Shown: piece by piece, positions 2,474 to 13,645 of the stretch
Layout: each line of letters opens with the position of its first letter
Position numbering within the stretch: position 1 is the first letter of the stretch
Assembly (NCBI GenBank): GCA_030167145.1
Contig: CP126532.1
Coordinates: 4,675,189-4,739,188 of the forward strand
DNA: 64,000 nt
Source: Ktedonobacterales bacterium
GTDB taxonomy: Bacteria > Chloroflexota > Ktedonobacteria > Ktedonobacterales > JADMIN01
Direction of reading: 5' to 3'
Translations under genes and position numbers: made by a program
Notes under the pieces: model-generated
Seen by the model: only the letters and a program-made list of their open reading frames with translations
What the model was told of the DNA's origin: nothing
The model's database searches: none

Positions 2474-4416
2474 ATCCAGCGCACGAACCACCCAAGAATA
2501 CGCGCATAGAGATCGCGGATGTGCTCGCGCTCGCGGAAACCATGGCGCTCACGCGGATAGACGGCTAGCTCCGTGGGAATAGCGCGCTCGCGCAACGCGC
2601 GGAAGAAAGCGTATGCCTGGTTCACTGGCACGCAGGGGTCGGCTTCGCCGTGAACGATGAGCGTTGGCGTGTTGACGCGGGCGACATACGTGATGGCGGA
2701 CTTCTCACGATAGGCTTGCGGGTTCTCGTTCGGGTCAGCGCCGATGATACGCATGTCCCAATCGGGGATGTTGGATTGCGCGTGGAAGCTGTGGTAGTCG
2801 CAGATGCCCGCGCCCATCACCGCCGCCTTGAAGCGTGTGGTATGGGTGACGGCCCAGGCGGTCATGAAGCCGCCGTAGCTCCAGCCGTAGATGCCAATGC
2901 GCTCGCCATCCACCAGCCCCTGCGCGACGAGGTGATCTACACCGGCTAGCACATCCTGATAGTCTTTGCCGCCCATGTCGCCGAGCACGGCATCCGCGAA
3001 GGCCACGCCGCGCCCCATGCTGCCGCGTGGATTGGCGCGCAGTACGGCGTAGCCAGCGGCGGCGAAGAGTTGCGTCAGCGTGTCCATCCACATGTCGCGG
3101 AAGGCCGAGGTGGGGCCACCGTGGACGTAGAGGATTAGCGGTGGCGGCGTCCCGCGCGTGGGCGTGAGCGGCGCGGTATAGAGCGCCTCGATCTGCCACC
3201 CGTCTGCGCCTGTATAGCTGATGCGCTGATTGGGCGCGATTTGGAGCGTCTCTTCGGCAATCCGGTTGAAGCGTGTGAGTTGCCGCCAGGTGATGTGCTC
3301 ATCTGCTCCCGCGCCCTCGCGCATACCCAGCCATACATCCCACGGACGGCCAGCCTCGGTGTGGACGGCCGCGAAACGGCGCCCATCGGGCGTGGCGGAG
3401 AGTTGGGGGCGGGCCTGGTCACCGATGATGAAGTCCGCGCTCAGTTGGCAGCGGCTGCCATCGTCGGCGTTGAGCGCGCCAATCGTATTGGTGAGGCCGT
3501 CCCAGGCGGAGAAGACCAGTCGCCCGTCTTCGAGCGCGTAGAGCCAGCTTGGGTTGCCCTGAATGCCAGGGGTGAGGTTGCGCGGGTTGCCGCCCTGCGC
3601 AGGTATGGCGAAGATGTCTCCGCCCACCAGGGGTCGGTCGCTCCACTCGCCAGAGACGTAATAGATCGTATGTCCATCACGCGACCAGGCGAGCGCCCCC
3701 GCCTGACGACTGAGTATGCTCACTTGCTGGATAGCCCCACCTGCCGCGGGGACAATGCCGATCTGTCCGCGATACCAGTCGGTCTCGCCGGGGCCAGTGG
3801 AATAGAAGACGGCGAACTGTGTCCCATCAGGCGACCAGGCGTAGCTCCAAATCGTCACATCCGCTGGCGTGACTGGCTCTGCCGTGTCATAGCCAGGGCG
3901 GGCAATCCAGAGGCGCTGGTGACGTAGCGGCTCGTCCACCATTGGCTCGGCTTTGACCTCGTCGCCGTCGAGCGAGAGAAAGGCGACGCGCGTGCCATCT
4001 GGCGACCACTCTGGGTCGGCTGCCCCATTGGGCATGCTACAGACGCGGTGGGCGTCGCCACCCCTGGCGGGCATCGTATAGAGTTGCGGCTTGTCGTTGT
4101 AGGGCGCCTTATCGCCCTCGTCGCGCTTGGAGACGAACAGCAGAGAGCGTCCGTCTGGCGACCAGCGCGGCTCGTAATCCCCATCGGAGCCGGTAGTCAG
4201 CGGGCGTGGCTCGCCGCCATGTTCGTTGGTGTCCACCAGCCAGATACGCCCGCGCTGCGTGGCGCGACCGGGTATCCATTCCATCAGCGTACATGCTACA
4301 CGTGCGCCATCGGGCGAGATACGCGGGTCTACCGGTGTGCGTAGGCTGAAGAGGGTATCGAGCGACACCGGGGTGCGCTGGGGAATCTCGCTGATGCCAG
4401 TTGGAGTGTCGCTCAT
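2470..4416 (-). CDS. S9 family serine peptidase (prolyl oligopeptidase/acylaminoacyl-peptidase type) with N-terminal beta-propeller
   Basis: Repeated WSPDG propeller motifs, then an alpha/beta-hydrolase domain with the GWSYGG nucleophile elbow, HGEADPCVP and a C-terminal RERHGF. Confidence 0.85.
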   Translation of the reverse strand: MSDTPTGISEIPQRTPVSLDTLFSLRTPVDPRISPDGARVACTLMEWIPGRATQRGRIWLVDTNEHGGEPRPLTTGSDGDYEPRWSPDGRSLLFVSKRDEGDKAPYNDKPQLYTMPARGGDAHRVCSMPNGAADPEWSPDGTRVAFLSLDGDEVKAEPMVDEPLRHQRLWIARPGYDTAEPVTPADVTIWSYAWSPDGTQFAVFYSTGPGETDWYRGQIGIVPAAGGAIQQVSILSRQAGALAWSRDGHTIYYVSGEWSDRPLVGGDIFAIPAQGGNPRNLTPGIQGNPSWLYALEDGRLVFSAWDGLTNTIGALNADDGSRCQLSADFIIGDQARPQLSATPDGRRFAAVHTEAGRPWDVWLGMREGAGADEHITWRQLTRFNRIAEETLQIAPNQRISYTGADGWQIEALYTAPLTPTRGTPPPLILYVHGGPTSAFRDMWMDTLTQLFAAAGYAVLRANPRGSMGRGVAFADAVLGDMGGKDYQDVLAGVDHLVAQGLVDGERIGIYGWSYGGFMTAWAVTHTTRFKAAVMGAGICDYHSFHAQSNIPDWDMRIIGADPNENPQAYREKSAITYVARVNTPTLIVHGEADPCVPVNQAYAFFRALRERAIPTELAVYPRERHGFREREHIRDLYARILGWFVRWI

Positions 4417-8588: not shown

Positions 8589-9908
8589 TCACAGCACCAT
8601 CGCTTCGTGCGCCGACGAACCGAAGTCGCGGTCTGGGGCGAACGCCGCCAGATCAATGCTATGCTGCTCGAATGGCGCGGGCAATTGCACACTCCCTTGG
8701 GTCACGTCGCCGGCGAGCAGCGCCTCCACCAGCAGCGCGGTAATCGGCGCATGCATCAGCCCGTGGCCCGAAAATCCCGCCGCATGCAGCAGATTGGCCT
8801 GATGGCTATCGAAGCCGATCAGCGGGTTCGCGTCGGGCGTCGCCCCATAGAAGCCGCTGGTCGTGGCCACGAGGCCACCCGCGTTGGCAAGCTGGGGCGC
8901 GAACGCCTCCACCTCGGCCAGCGTGGCGTAGCCGAAGTTCTCCAGCCCATTCTCGTGGTTGAACGGCGGATCAATGCGATCCTGATCGGCATCGGTAAAC
9001 TCCGGCTCTGGGGGTGTCTCATGTGCCCAGGCGAGCACCAGCAGCGGGCCATCGGGCCGCGAGAGTGCGCCGCGTCCCGCGCCTAGCCCGTAGATCGTCA
9101 TCGGTTGGCGCTCCCAGTCCTCCGCACTCATGATCGGGCGCTGAATCCGCAGGTGGTAGAGGTAGCGTTTGACCGGTGAAATGGCCAGCGGCAGCCCACC
9201 GAGATGCGCGCTCACACGCGGCGCCCAGGCGTTGGTCGCGTTGACGAACCAGTCCGCCACGATCTCGCCTTGTGTCGTTTCGATGCTGGTGATACGCCCT
9301 CCGCGTAGCCGCGCGCCCAGCATTTCGGTCTGTGTGAGCACCTCGACGCCCAGTTCGCGTGCGCGCCGCATCCCCTCGCCGTAGATGACATGCGGATACA
9401 GAAAGCCGTCGGTGGGGCAGAAGGTCGCGCCGATCAAGCGGGATGGCTCGATGTGCGGCCAGCGCCGCGTCACGTCGCCTGGCTCTAACACCTCCACGGG
9501 CAACCCGATGCGCCGCTGCGTCTCCGCGTAGCCCAGCGCGCGCTGCCACGCCTGCGCCGCCGAGGCGCGCAGCGCTGGCTTCCAGGCGGGCGCGGCCTGT
9601 GCGGGATCTTCGTAGAGGAAGAGGTAGCCGTTCTGCTGGATGACGGGCTGGCGCTGCTCGGCGGGGGTCTTTAAGATGTCATGGAAGCGCTCGTACCACC
9701 ATTCCGAGTACATCATGCCGGTGATCGTCTCTTCGACGCCGAACTGCGCGCGAATCCCCGCGTTCGACCGGCTGGACGAGCCGTTGCCCACCGCCGCCTT
9801 CTCGATCACTGACACTGTGAAGCCGCGCTCTGCCAGCCGCACCGCCACCAGCGCGCCCGTCGCGCCCCCGCCGATCACCACGACCCGTTCGCCCGTACTA
9901 GACGCCAT
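8589..9908 (-). CDS. FAD-dependent oxidoreductase (DAO family, sarcosine oxidase beta/glycine oxidase-like)
   Basis: N-terminal Rossmann motif VVVIGGGATGALVAVRLAERGFTVSVIEK. The length and C-terminal GFSGHGLMHAP are typical of the DAO family. Confidence 0.8.
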   Translation of the reverse strand: MASSTGERVVVIGGGATGALVAVRLAERGFTVSVIEKAAVGNGSSSRSNAGIRAQFGVEETITGMMYSEWWYERFHDILKTPAEQRQPVIQQNGYLFLYEDPAQAAPAWKPALRASAAQAWQRALGYAETQRRIGLPVEVLEPGDVTRRWPHIEPSRLIGATFCPTDGFLYPHVIYGEGMRRARELGVEVLTQTEMLGARLRGGRITSIETTQGEIVADWFVNATNAWAPRVSAHLGGLPLAISPVKRYLYHLRIQRPIMSAEDWERQPMTIYGLGAGRGALSRPDGPLLVLAWAHETPPEPEFTDADQDRIDPPFNHENGLENFGYATLAEVEAFAPQLANAGGLVATTSGFYGATPDANPLIGFDSHQANLLHAAGFSGHGLMHAPITALLVEALLAGDVTQGSVQLPAPFEQHSIDLAAFAPDRDFGSSAHEAMVL

Positions 9909-9990
9909 AGCATCTGCTCCCCCGCTGCGTATTCCGCGAAAAGTTGAGCCGATTGTGACATGCGCGCCATCCCGAAAGGAAAGGGGCTTC

Positions 9991-11154
9991 TCAGTTCACC
10001 GCCGTAGCCACTGCCACGGCTCCCTGACGGGCCTGCCCGGCCCGGAGAATGTTTCTGGCCGCGTTCTCGTCGCGGTCCAGCACCAGCCCACACTGCGGAC
10101 AGATATGCGTGCGGACCGACAGGCTCTTTTCGATCCGTTCCGGGCAGTGCGTACCATCGGCCAACACCCCACTACAGTTTTGGCTGGTGTAGGCGGGTTC
10201 TATCGCAATCACCTGTTTACCGGCGCATGCTGCCTTGTACTCAAGTGTGGTACGAAATTGTGCCCAGCCCGCATCACTGATGCTCTTGGCGAGGCGATGA
10301 TTCCGTACCAGATTGCGGACCCGCAACTCTTCGAGATAGATCACATCATACTGGCGCACCAGCGCCAGCGCCGTCTTGTGATGGAAATCGCGCCGCTGGC
10401 GCTGCACCTTCTGATGCTTGCGCGCCAGCAACTTCACCGCCTTCTTGCGACGGTGGCTACCCTTCTTGCGGCGGGAGACACGGCGTTGAGCTTTCTTGAG
10501 ATCGCGTTCGGCTTTGCGGTAGTGGCGAGGGTTTTCCACAAACACTCCGTCTGCCGTCATAAGGAAGACGTTCAGCCCCACATCAATGCCGGTTTCCTTG
10601 CCGGTGAATGGCAACGGCTGGACCGGTGCCTCGGCGCACGAGAAACAGGCATACCAACCACCCGCTTCTTTGGAAACTGTGACGGTCTTGGGCATGCCAT
10701 GAAGTGGACGATGTACCCGGATGGGAATGCGGCCGATCTTCGACAGGCTTAGTAGGCTGCCATCAAGCACCGCGCCGTTGCCATACTGCGGGTAGGTGAA
10801 GGAGTGGTAGCGATTCTCTCCCTGGAAGCGCGGATAGCCCGGTGTCTCGCCGTGCTGCACCCGCCGGAAGAAGGCGGCAAACGTTTTGTCCAGCCGACGT
10901 AGCGCATCCTGCAACACCTGCGCGTTGACCTCAGTGTAGTCGGGACAAGCGGTTTTTAGGTCCGGCAACTCCGTCGCCTGTTGGTAGTACGTGGCGCTCT
11001 TGCCTTGGCCACGCTGCCACCACGTCTTGCGTTGTTCTAAGGCGATGTTGTAGAGCGTGCGGCACCGCGATAGGACTGTCTCCAGCGCCTGTGCTTGTGC
11101 TGGTGTGGGCATCAGTTGGTACTTGAACGTCTTGCGCACGCTCGTCACGGTCAC
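9991..11154 (-). CDS. tnpB: TnpB (OrfB_IS605) RNA-guided endonuclease
   Basis: N-terminus KTFKYQLMPTPAQAQALE. RuvC-like acidic residues in TGIDVGLN, VIYLEEL and DRDENAARNI. A Cys-rich zinc-ribbon (CSG..HCP...CPQCG) is present. The GTG start overlaps the upstream stop (GTGA). Confidence 0.9.
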   Translation of the reverse strand: MTVTSVRKTFKYQLMPTPAQAQALETVLSRCRTLYNIALEQRKTWWQRGQGKSATYYQQATELPDLKTACPDYTEVNAQVLQDALRRLDKTFAAFFRRVQHGETPGYPRFQGENRYHSFTYPQYGNGAVLDGSLLSLSKIGRIPIRVHRPLHGMPKTVTVSKEAGGWYACFSCAEAPVQPLPFTGKETGIDVGLNVFLMTADGVFVENPRHYRKAERDLKKAQRRVSRRKKGSHRRKKAVKLLARKHQKVQRQRRDFHHKTALALVRQYDVIYLEELRVRNLVRNHRLAKSISDAGWAQFRTTLEYKAACAGKQVIAIEPAYTSQNCSGVLADGTHCPERIEKSLSVRTHICPQCGLVLDRDENAARNILRAGQARQGAVAVATAVN

Positions 11155-11333
11155 GGCTCTATCGCTCGCTTCTCTCCCGCCTGTTTTTGCTGGCGGGCAA
11201 TGTACTCACGGATGGCTCGAACCAATTCTCCGTTTAGCGAACGGTCATTCTCGCGGGCCAAGCGTTTCATCATGTTGGCAATATCAGCCGAAATGCGCAG
11301 GGTGATTTTGACGTCTTCATACTTCTTGTCCAT
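11151..11333 (-). CDS. Ribbon-helix-helix (Arc/CopG/MetJ-type) DNA-binding protein
   Basis: The 60-aa sequence has a beta-strand-like KITLRISADI followed by two helices (ANMMKRLARENDRSLNGELVRAIREYI). Its stop overlaps the tnpB start. Confidence 0.75.
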   Translation of the reverse strand: MDKKYEDVKITLRISADIANMMKRLARENDRSLNGELVRAIREYIARQQKQAGEKRAIEP

Positions 11334-11339
11334 GACGGT

Positions 11340-11368
11340 ATTCTACCATCAGTACAAGGTCATAACAA
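11340..11368 (-). promoter_or_regulatory. Sigma-70-type promoter (TTGTTA-17 nt-TAGAAT) placed 6 nt before the RHH ATG; implies a leaderless mRNA
   Basis: The minus strand reads cTTGTTAtgaccttgtactgatggTAGAATaccgtcATG. There is no SD between the -10 and the ATG. Confidence 0.45.
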
Positions 11369-11854
11369 GAAGTAGACTCTTCGTGGCCTGTACGGGCTAT
11401 CTGGCGTTCATCCTTTACCGAAAGGGAGGCGTTCTCAGCCGATTTCTTCGATAGCATCAGCGCGCTATGATGAAGTGGGCGCTGCTCGCGGCCATCAATG
11501 GCCGATGCACAGACGACCTGGGCCGTAAACGGCCTTCAAGCCACCAGCGTTTGTGCTCCGGCCCTTGAGAGCCGAGAACTCGCCCGTGCTCCGGCCTACA
11601 GCAACGGCCATAGACGTGACCGCCATTGCCGGTGGGCCGTCTAACAAACGACGTGTATTTCAGGTACGAGGATGTGCTGGCCTGGGTTGTGCTGAGCAAA
11701 GATGCTCGTGCGATTGTGAGGCTTTCGCGCCAGACGCGGCTGCCTTTTCATAAAAACCATCCATTTCATAGTACGTATCCGCTCGAAACTCCATCCCTGC
11801 CTCATGTGATAGACGAGACAGAGGAAGAAGGAGGCAGCGGAAGAGGGTAGTATT

Positions 11855-13645
11855 GTGGCAGACAGCGACGAGCAAGGAACCCCGCAGCTAGAACGCACCA
11901 CCGAACCGGCGAGCGCGCCACGCAAGAATGGCGCGACCCCGACACGCCGCACCGCGACGCGCGCCAGCACCGCGGCGAATGCTACCGGCGCTAAGCGCAG
12001 CGCCGCCAGCGCCGCCAGCGCCAGCCCGCCCAAAGCGCCCGCGAAAACCGCCGCCAAAACGTCCACTCGCGCGACACCGAAATCTGGCGCGTTGGATGCC
12101 GCACCCGATATGCAGACCAGTACAGCAGCGCCCCCTACGCCAGCCGCCGCACCGCGCCGCACACGCGCGACGACGACCCGCGCGACGACGACCCGCGCCA
12201 ACACGAGCGCCAGCGTTGCCGAGCTGTCGGTGAGCGATGACGTTTCGGCTGCCGTGGCGCCTGAGATGGGCATTGCGCGGGAAGCCGCCGCGACGCTTGC
12301 GCCACCGACCGCCAATATCGCGGAACTGCGCCGCCCGCGCTCGATGGGTGGCATCTCGCCGGAGAATACGGTCTTCGTCTCGCTCAGCTTCGAGGGGCCA
12401 GACATCTATTCCGCCGCTGGTGGCCTGGGCACGCGCGTCACCGAATTCACCGAATCGCTGGCTGGGCTGGGCTATGAGACGCACCTGATCTTCGTCGGCG
12501 ACCCCACCAAGCCCGCCGTCGAAACGGCGATCAACGGTAAGCTCTACCTCAAACGTTGGAGCCAGTGGATCAGCCAGTATTATCTCAACGGCGTCTACGA
12601 CGGCGAGGAGCAGAAGCTCTACGACTACAACGAATCCGTGCCCTATCACGTCTACGAGCAGATCGTCGCCCCCGCCGTGGCCCAGGGCAAGATGGTCGTC
12701 GTCATCGGCGAAGACTGGCAGACCGCCGAAACTATCTGCCGCCTCTCCGACTTGCTGCACTGGCACAGCCAGCGACACCGCTGCATCCTGATGTGGAACT
12801 GCAACAGCCTGATGTCGCTGCATCGCATCAACTGGGGTCGCCTCAATTTCTGCGCGTCCATCACCACCGTCAGCCGCTACATGAAGCAGCGCCTCTGGCA
12901 GTACAACGTCAATCCGCTGGTCATCCCCAACGGCATCCCCAGTCGCTATCTGGAACAGGTAGATTCGCAACAGATCGCCGAACTGCGCGCGATCATGCAG
13001 CACGGCGACCCCGACCGCCTCTTCCTGTTCAAGATTGGCCGCTTCGACCCCGACAAACGCTGGCTGATGGCGATTGAGGCGGCGGCGCGGCTGAAGTACA
13101 GCGGGCATCCCATCTCGATGGTGATTCGCGGCGGCATCGAGCCACACGGCGGCGAAGTGCTGAACCGCGCCCGCTACCTTGGCCTGAATGTCCGCGACAT
13201 TGAAGCGCGCCGCCCCTCGCTGGAAGAGTGCATGACGCTGATGCGCGAGGCGGGTGAGGCCGACATCTATAACCTGCGCTTCTTCGTTCCCGCTGAGTTT
13301 GTGCGCGCCTGCTATGCCGCCGCCGATGCGACGCTGGCCAATAGCGGCCACGAGCCGTTCGGCCTGGTGGGGCTAGAGGTGATGGCTGCCGGTGGCATCG
13401 CCTTCACCGGCTCTACTGGCGAGGATTACGCGGTGTCGTTTGAGAATGCTGTGGCGCTGGAGACGGATGACGCCGAGGAGATTGTCGGCTATCTGCTGCA
13501 CATGATGCGCCATCCCGAAGAGCGCGCGAAGATCACCAGCGCGGGCACGCGCACGGCGAGCGAGTTCACCTGGGAAGAAGTGATAGATAACCTGATTGGC
13601 AAGGTGGGCTATCTTGCCCGCAAGCAGAACATCGTTCTCGCGTAG
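11855..13645 (+). CDS. GT4-family glycosyltransferase (glycogen/sucrose-synthase-like) with about 180-aa Ala/Thr/Pro/Arg-rich N-terminal extension
   Basis: The catalytic part starts at VFVSLSFEGPDIYSAAGGLGTRV. The C-terminal half has the GT-B motif (EPFGLVGLEVMAAG). GTG start after GGAGG. Confidence 0.8.
   Translation: MADSDEQGTPQLERTTEPASAPRKNGATPTRRTATRASTAANATGAKRSAASAASASPPKAPAKTAAKTSTRATPKSGALDAAPDMQTSTAAPPTPAAAPRRTRATTTRATTTRANTSASVAELSVSDDVSAAVAPEMGIAREAAATLAPPTANIAELRRPRSMGGISPENTVFVSLSFEGPDIYSAAGGLGTRVTEFTESLAGLGYETHLIFVGDPTKPAVETAINGKLYLKRWSQWISQYYLNGVYDGEEQKLYDYNESVPYHVYEQIVAPAVAQGKMVVVIGEDWQTAETICRLSDLLHWHSQRHRCILMWNCNSLMSLHRINWGRLNFCASITTVSRYMKQRLWQYNVNPLVIPNGIPSRYLEQVDSQQIAELRAIMQHGDPDRLFLFKIGRFDPDKRWLMAIEAAARLKYSGHPISMVIRGGIEPHGGEVLNRARYLGLNVRDIEARRPSLEECMTLMREAGEADIYNLRFFVPAEFVRACYAAADATLANSGHEPFGLVGLEVMAAGGIAFTGSTGEDYAVSFENAVALETDDAEEIVGYLLHMMRHPEERAKITSAGTRTASEFTWEEVIDNLIGKVGYLARKQNIVLA
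12164..12199 (+). repeat. Perfect 15-nt tandem repeat (CGCGCGACGACGACC x2.4) inside the GT4 N-terminal extension
   Basis: It encodes TRATTTRATTTRA. It is an in-frame coding low-complexity repeat. Confidence 0.9.

Follow-up and report, generated by a model that had tools for sequence, protein, structure and literature searches.

An Arc-type ribbon-helix-helix gene paired with tnpB in a Ktedonobacterales IS200/IS605 element as a candidate autorepressor

The 64,000-nucleotide stretch of contig CP126532.1 analyzed here (referred to throughout as the window) belongs to a metagenome-assembled genome of a Ktedonobacterales bacterium (Chloroflexota; locus tag OJF49_004507, 5.07-Mb contig) and carries, on its minus strand, an element of approximately 1.5 kb (roughly 11463-9955) in which a small gene, arc, directly precedes tnpB. 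We consider it likely, though well short of certain, that this is a non-autonomous, IS1341-like member of the IS200/IS605 insertion sequence (IS) family whose Arc-type ribbon-helix-helix (RHH) protein acts as the autorepressor of a leaderless arc-tnpB-omegaRNA unit. The pairing of arc with tnpB is conserved in every Arc-relative locus sampled, the spacing of the promoter relative to the arc start codon is strictly kept, an inverted repeat lies over that promoter only where arc is present, the catalytic residues of TnpB are retained, the 3' module shows covariation expected of an omega-RNA and a related arc-tnpB unit has moved as a whole. The kind of system is already known, since the pairing was reported in 2023-2024 and repression was shown in 2026; the window element is a Chloroflexota member with a co-directional, apparently coupled and leaderless layout.

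The features of the locus are as follows; all those of the element lie on the minus strand, and the palindrome is listed without a strand.

11151-11333, minus strand: arc, 60-aa Arc/Mnt-type RHH protein, ATG start (profile, fold and substitution rates)
9991-11154, minus strand: tnpB, 387-aa RNA-guided nuclease, GTG start at 11154 or, by homology, at 11148
11340-11368, minus strand: promoter, -35 box, 17-nt spacer and TG-extended -10 box (motif scan and conserved spacing)
11320-11374, no strand: predicted Arc operator, a palindrome spanning the promoter (repeat search, DNA fold and comparison)
11369-11463, minus strand: non-coding left end (LE) containing a weak subterminal hairpin (conserved upstream alignment block; 5' limit approximate)
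11464-11467, minus strand: putative target-adjacent motif (TAM) 5'-TAGC, directly 5' of the LE (from alignment)
9955-10100, minus strand: scaffold of the omega-RNA together with the right end (RE); overlaps the 3' end of tnpB (covariation; 5' limit approximate)
9935-9954, minus strand: would-be guide flank aatcggctcaacttttcgcg, adjoining the RE boundary (guide role by analogy with IS200/IS605)
8589-9908, minus strand: host gene for a flavin adenine dinucleotide (FAD)-dependent oxidoreductase

Conservation of the pairing and the two proteins

The element was first described in an original prediction made from the sequence of the window, whose observation is confirmed and whose interpretation is partly supported. 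The 60-aa RHH open reading frame (ORF; 11333..11151) and tnpB (11154..9991), overlapping at GTGA, are both present in the ORF calls, and the statement that the element encodes neither a Y1 nor a serine transposase held; nor was a Y1 TnpA, or a second copy of the element, found anywhere in the 64-kb window. To sample related arc loci, we combined exact-protein look-ups, a metagenome scan and genome loci found with TnpB. In all 17 distinct loci encoding an Arc relative, tnpB lay directly downstream of arc in varied genomic contexts, indicating that the pairing is not due to chance. None of these 17 loci had a Y1 tnpA beside arc in the flanks examined; within this family, arc and tnpA exclude one another.

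The converse does not hold. A scan for TnpB relatives (40-75% identical) yielded 39 genome loci, only four of which carried this Arc; one element (L008/L009) had a different RHH-like ORF, five loci had a Y1 tnpA or a fragment of it directly upstream of tnpB, and the remainder had tnpB only. Absence of the RHH gene from homologous elements had been named in advance as a sign of chance juxtaposition, and many close TnpB relatives indeed lack it, yet the unbroken association seen from the side of arc speaks for a real pairing. In the sister elements L014, L022, L029 and L038, a Y1_Tnp gene is directly upstream of tnpB, and the comparison of these loci supports the placement of the RHH gene within the element, in the slot that tnpA holds in its sisters. 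L014, whose TnpB is 75% identical to that of the window, is such a tnpA element, and in a neighbor-joining tree of TnpB the arc, tnpA and solo forms were interleaved, with the window (arc) grouping with L014 (tnpA) and L002 (arc). The Arc of L001 is 81% identical to the window Arc, yet its TnpB is only 55% identical. The interleaved tree and the discordant identities of Arc and TnpB together indicate that the module preceding tnpB has been repeatedly exchanged or lost within one IS lineage. No decayed RHH remnant was detected by tblastn with seven RHH variants upstream of the solo tnpB relatives. The different small RHH-like ORF (MKKRTTIWLDDTD...; L008:314-478 and L009:2835-2999) precedes a 66%-identical tnpB and has weak Pfam matches to ParD/VapB and none to Arc, which suggests that an RHH gene was recruited into this slot a second time and independently.

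The window Arc scored 20.0 bits against the Pfam Arc family (PF03869), marginally under the cut-off of 20.4, while relatives scored 22.6 (L011), 25.8 (L020) and 40.1 bits (L051), and most clusters of the family carry a precomputed PF03869 match. A profile of the family matched Mnt (E=9e-4) and P22 Arc (E=3e-3) in the PDB, with K9, T11 and R13 of the predicted beta-strand aligned to Q9, N11 and R13 of P22 Arc. In the AlphaFold2 model (predicted local distance difference test score 74), helices span residues 16-28 and 33-56, and RHH proteins made up the top Foldseek matches, with CopA_SO (TMt 0.91) and P22 Arc at the head; the probability was 0.97-1.00 for most of the top 24 matches, none of which had E <= 0.001. 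Profile searches extended the family to at least 510 clusters of proteins of 52-60 aa. All named members are from Ktedonobacterales, and the top 120 of the 510 profile matches came from soil metagenomes or Ktedonobacterales. Most members are bare RHH domains of 52-55 aa, and the seven extra C-terminal residues of the window Arc are not conserved. Finally, nonsynonymous change (pN 0.09-0.15) was far below synonymous change (pS 0.62-0.79) in comparisons with relatives of at least 63% protein identity, indicating that the arc ORF is under purifying selection.

TnpB scored 319 bits on the NCBIfam model guided_TnpB, matched the Pfam families OrfB_IS605, Cas12f1-like_TNB and HTH_OrfB_IS605, and aligned over its full length to ISDra2 TnpB (8h1j/8exa; E=5e-64). 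Its RuvC residues D191, E275 and D362 fall opposite the catalytic D191, E278 and D361 of ISDra2, and a zinc ribbon is formed by C327, C337, C352 and C355, the first pair being C-x9-C rather than CxxC. By this alignment TnpB looks catalytically intact, as the original prediction had proposed from candidate residues.

Promoter, inverted repeat and element boundaries

The near-consensus promoter predicted upstream of arc was confirmed in the sequence. It consists of a -35 box (TTGTTA, 11368-11363), a 17-nt spacer and a -10 box (TAGAAT, 11345-11340) preceded by TG, and it ends 6 nt before the arc ATG with no Shine-Dalgarno (SD) sequence in between; a promoter scan of the region returned two promoter-like sites against 0.8 expected. 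This geometry is highly conserved. In all 16 arc loci, a TAnnnT -10 box, usually with TGg in front of it, stops exactly 6 nt short of the arc start, a TTG-type -35 box is located 17 nt upstream of the -10 box, and the 6-nt spacer contains no SD-like sequence in any of the 16. With the -10 box fixed in this way, transcription would be expected to start on the A of the arc ATG, so the conserved spacing supports, although it does not prove, the leaderless arc-first mRNA proposed for this locus. A -10-like box was also observed 6-8 nt before the first gene in sister elements (L014:2587-2979, L038:2572-2964, L029:2603-2989) and in solo loci (L016, L033, L034 and others). Since such boxes also precede the first gene of elements that begin with tnpA or tnpB, the near-leaderless design appears to belong to the IS family and not to arc.

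In all loci examined, the stop codon of arc either overlapped the start codon of tnpB or was separated from it by 1-2 nt. Although the GTGA overlap reported for the window exists, with a tnpB start at 11154, a second in-frame GTG at 11148 (TGAccGTG) matches the position used by homologues, and tnpB therefore probably starts at 11148 instead of 11154. Tight translational coupling of tnpB to arc would be predicted with either start.

An inverted repeat surrounds the promoter. Its outer arms (11374-11365 and 11329-11320) are perfect over 10 bp, and its inner arms, ATGAC (11363-11359) and GTCAT (11336-11332), place the right arm over the arc ATG. The palindrome comprises 15 paired bp, and its DNA fold (z=-3.4) was equaled in only 1 of 200 shuffles. 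The repeat brackets the -10 box: its left arm starts just after the -35 box, and its right arm spans the 6-nt spacer together with the start codon. Nine of 16 arc loci had arms of 7-14 bp (shuffle p <= 0.02), with a right arm that in each case ended at +1 to +5; the arm sequences varied by subfamily (CCATGACC..., CACGCCACC, CATGCTAC and CATGCCCCTA). In nine solo-tnpB relatives, whose promoter layout is the same, the best arms were 3-5 bp and none lay over the start codon. Because the repeat travels with arc, we take it as the predicted Arc binding site, and it is likely, from this comparison of sequences, that it serves as the Arc operator. The proposal that the RHH protein is an autorepressor fits both this arc-specific repeat over the promoter and the chromatin immunoprecipitation sequencing (ChIP-seq) and reporter data of Moon et al. 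on other Arcs, described below. The outer right arm (11320-11329) also lies within arc codons 2-5, which encode DKKY where the family consensus is DKQQ; the palindrome may have shaped these codons, or the overlap may be fortuitous.

At the other end of the element, 36 related loci share a 3' module consisting of ...GAACCGAGAAG, a hairpin and GGGGAG(CA)TGTCA(C/A/G), and in these 36 loci the flanks are unrelated directly after TGTCA(C/A/G), defining a sharp RE boundary. The window RE ends in ...GCGCATGTCAC at 9955. An alignment fold of the module predicted 19 pairs, 12 of which show compensatory changes, and the same stems form in the RNA fold of the window sequence. The covarying pairs fit an omega-RNA; a Rfam scan of 9000-12500 (E<=1) returned no omega-RNA or other family. 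The adjoining flank (9954-9935) is unique in the window and, by analogy with IS200/IS605 elements, would supply the omega-RNA guide. An observation from a solo relative also touches this end: four tandem copies of TGTCAG(TG) follow straight after its RE (L007:4174-4215), echoing the RE-terminal TGTCA.

Mobility of an arc-tnpB unit was evident for the element encoding Arc P0114, copies of which (98-100% identical) occur with three unrelated 5' flanks and all start at TGACAGG. The common start base in three flanks indicates that the arc-tnpB unit transposes whole, and TGAC is likely the TAM in the Arc P0114 subgroup. At the position of the window's TAM, subgroup relatives show TAGC, GGAC or CGGC, and the window TAM would be TAGC (11467-11464), with a left boundary less certain than that of the Arc P0114 element. 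In addition, a syntenic but element-free locus was found (L066), in which a divergent glycosyltransferase/oxidoreductase gene pair is separated by 311 bp compared with 1946 bp in the window. Its FAD-oxidoreductase is 73% identical to that of the window, and since the closest homologues of the flanking genes are only 73-76% identical, what was recovered is synteny and a short motif: the uninterrupted L066 site ctATAATgCGGCTC is similar to the window flanks once joined, TAGC|AATCGGCTC. In relatives of the element, the end hairpins are clear, for example CCCCTGCC-loop-GGCAtGGGG at both LE and RE.

The insertion lies 46 nt upstream of the co-oriented FAD-oxidoreductase gene (9909-9954; the other flank is 11464-11854), and a TATAAT box is present at the insertion-homologous point of the element-free locus (L066:3690-4000). 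The insertion may have split the promoter of this host gene, whose expression may now rely on transcripts reading through from the Arc-controlled promoter. In an independently made assembly (L069; Logan SRR22113990), the same locus breaks inside tnpB, with the contig ending at locus position 4106, and this could be because similar tnpB copies elsewhere in the genome confused the assembler.

Proposed mechanism and alternatives

In the mechanism that we favor, the TG-extended -10 promoter would start transcription on the A of the arc ATG or directly beside it and give a leaderless arc-tnpB-omegaRNA transcript, from which tnpB would be translated by termination and reinitiation at the arc stop codon. 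Arc dimers would bind both arms of the repeat and block RNA polymerase at the element's only promoter, so that autorepression together with coupling would buffer TnpB and omega-RNA at a low level. TnpA supplied in trans by sister elements would move the element, and TnpB with its omega-RNA would then cut the vacated site, made up of TAM and target, leading to restoration of the element. That TnpA would act in trans is suggested by gene content, since the window contains no Y1 TnpA and the sister elements carry Y1_Tnp; the window copy is therefore non-autonomous, like IS1341-type members.

Several observations weigh against this reading. The palindrome is short or absent in the arc loci L045, L050 and L011, and its arm centers, approximately 27 bp apart, are spaced more widely than in classic Arc or CopG operators. 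Arcs with the same contact residues, K-T-R, occur with different arms (ATGAC in the window group and ATGCCCCTA in L053), indicating that recognition cannot be read from K9, T11 and R13 alone. The link between this Arc family and the Clostridial Arcs of Moon et al. is drawn by analogy from their published description. With respect to mobility, the RE hairpin of the window (9955-9995) has a folding energy of only -2.4 kcal/mol, while 10 of 11 relatives range from -5.6 to -9.8, and the LE hairpin, CCTTT cggt AAAGG (11425-11412), with a centroid of -2.9 kcal/mol, is no better than shuffles. Finally, with regard to the copy number that the original prediction had proposed to count, an exact-protein look-up placed this Arc at a single position in the 5.07-Mb genome, a count that covers exact matches only. 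The window copy may thus be a poor TnpA substrate that is immobilized or no longer mobile, although its genes and omega-RNA look intact.

The alternative that survives best, although we regard it as unlikely, is that the repeat acts as an RNA or single-stranded DNA hairpin by which the start codon of arc is masked in transcripts that read through from outside, with Arc acting elsewhere, for example at the element ends, where it would modulate access of TnpA. Insertion sequences such as IS10, IS50 and IS200 are well known to be shielded from outside transcription, so a hairpin of this sort would have precedent. Furthermore, the arms remain complementary while their sequence shifts between subfamilies, the right arm always holds the start codon, and arms differ between elements that share their beta-strand contact residues. 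However, the repeat occurs only where arc is present and is missing from solo-tnpB relatives with the same promoter layout. In addition, an internal AUG lacking an SD sequence would be poorly translated in any case, and a leaderless transcript would hold the right arm only. Inverted Arc motifs have, moreover, been mapped onto promoter elements (Moon et al., bioRxiv 10.64898/2026.09.24.754181). The hairpin is thus a weaker explanation of the repeat than an Arc operator.

We give little credence to a toxin-antitoxin (TA)-like pair, in which the RHH protein would be an antitoxin that binds TnpB directly and blocks the nuclease, so that the pair stabilizes itself in the genome. The layout does recall type II TA operons, with a small RHH gene upstream of, and probably translationally coupled to, a nuclease gene; the top Foldseek match is the DNA-binding domain of an RHH antitoxin, and such a role was proposed for archaeal RHH-TnpB pairs from co-folding models (Altae-Tran et al. 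2023, PMC10691335). Nevertheless, members of this family, mostly 52-55 aa, have no C-terminal toxin-binding tail, and the seven extra residues of the window Arc are unconserved; that Arc is a bare RHH domain makes this reading unlikely. TnpB also retains the canonical RuvC-III Asp in place of the D->H rearrangement of the archaeal clade, the relatives are mobile IS elements, and many close TnpB relatives lack any RHH gene, which would be unexpected for a toxin that needs neutralization.

Less probable still is that the window copy is an immobilized, Arc-gated module on its way to exaptation, either driving or gating the downstream host gene or becoming an addiction-type or RNA-guided regulatory pair. 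This reading is allowed by the complete replacement of tnpA by arc (0 of 17 loci) and the predicted coupling to tnpB, by the decay of the hairpins that TnpA would recognize while arc, tnpB and the omega-RNA look intact, and by the position of the element 46 nt upstream of a co-oriented FAD-oxidoreductase gene with the ancestral -10 region at the insertion point. A chance juxtaposition or spurious small ORF, for which one could cite the score of the window Arc just under the Pfam cut-off and the lack of arc in most close TnpB relatives, is almost certainly wrong and was rejected on the 17-of-17 association with tnpB in different contexts, the low pN relative to pS, the 510 or more related clusters, the predicted RHH fold and the location of the ORF within the boundaries of a transposed unit.

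Comparison with known systems

Cas12 descends from TnpB, which is itself a compact nuclease for genome editing. How TnpB expression is naturally controlled is of both practical and evolutionary interest, and the single TnpB lineage compared here, with its arc, tnpA and solo forms, offers natural controls for Arc-mediated repression.

The closest protein family is that of phage P22 Arc and Mnt (PF03869). The window Arc resembles these repressors in size (53 aa in most relatives), in its beta-alpha-alpha fold, in the alignment of strand positions 9, 11 and 13, and in the conserved helix-B N-cap motif RS(L/V/M)N(G/S)E(L/I). The P22 Arc operator is 21 bp with a half-site spacing of 11 bp, whereas the predicted arms here are approximately 27 bp apart from center to center; the contact residues also differ, and the gene resides in a transposon, not in the immunity region of a phage.

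With respect to the transposon, the element resembles IS200/IS605 members of the ISDra2, IS1341 and IS605 types in the full-length alignment of TnpB, in its 3' omega-RNA and in a sharp RE boundary followed by a guide, and its relatives have LE and RE hairpins of similar sequence. It differs in having an extra regulator gene in the tnpA slot and in the weakness of the end hairpins of the window copy. A small transposon-encoded repressor that controls a gene of the Cas12k/TnpB lineage is also a feature of CRISPR-associated transposons belonging to type V-K, for which CvkR (MerR-type) and Arc-like regulators have been described (cited in Moon et al., 10.64898/2026.09.24.754181); the fold of CvkR is different, however, and those transposons are of the Tn7-like family.

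The original prediction was wrong in stating that no RHH-TnpB pairing had been described. An Arc-like RHH ORF adjoining tnpB was reported in IStrons by Zedaveinyte et al. (Science 2024; bioRxiv 10.1101/2023.11.20.567912), who also found hundreds of Arc-like homologues with TnpB, Cas12k, homing endonucleases and TA systems (bioRxiv 10.1101/2023.11.20.567912). Altae-Tran et al. (PNAS 2023, PMC10691335) reported RHH/MazE-TnpB pairs of an archaeal clade whose RuvC-III is rearranged and for which a toxin-antitoxin reading was proposed. That clade shares with the window element a small RHH (or AbrB/MazE) gene directly upstream of tnpB and a 3' region that could specify a guide RNA, but it is archaeal and non-mobile with a RuvC-III D->H change, whereas the window element is bacterial, has the canonical Asp and is related to a mobile unit. 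Membership in this clade (RIIIr-4) was rejected on the basis of the canonical D362, the Ktedonobacterales host and the mobile relative.

The nearest counterparts are the Arc-IS605 systems of Moon et al. (bioRxiv 10.64898/2026.09.24.754181, 28 Sept 2026). ChIP-seq in that study showed that Arcs of IS605 elements, including elements with arc and tnpB only, bind their own promoter at motifs oppositely oriented over the -35 and -10 boxes, and one Arc repressed a tnpB-promoter reporter, with mutations in the beta-strand or the motif relieving repression (10.64898/2026.09.24.754181). The mechanism put forward for the window has therefore already been demonstrated for related elements, and the locus opens no new question in this respect. 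The likenesses include an Arc-type RHH gene of approximately 50-60 aa within an IS605-family element beside tnpB; inverted motifs over the element's own promoter, computational in our case, with a proposed repression of both tnpB and arc; and the position of arc inside the transposon boundaries, here between the LE block and tnpB. The systems of Moon et al. are Clostridial; often they include tnpA and have arc pointing away from tnpB at a shared bidirectional promoter, some of them are IStrons, and their contact residues are N5, N7 and T9. In contrast, the element described here has a Chloroflexota host, an arc gene that is co-directional with tnpB and apparently coupled to it, a leaderless-type promoter, contact positions K9, T11 and R13, and no tnpA in any of 17 arc loci. 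With this locus, the recently reported Arc-IS605 systems gain a family in Chloroflexota that comprises at least 510 protein clusters, and the compact layout of this family, in which a leaderless-type promoter is combined with a palindromic candidate operator extending over the start codon and with coupling of stop to start, would tie the output of Arc and TnpB together.

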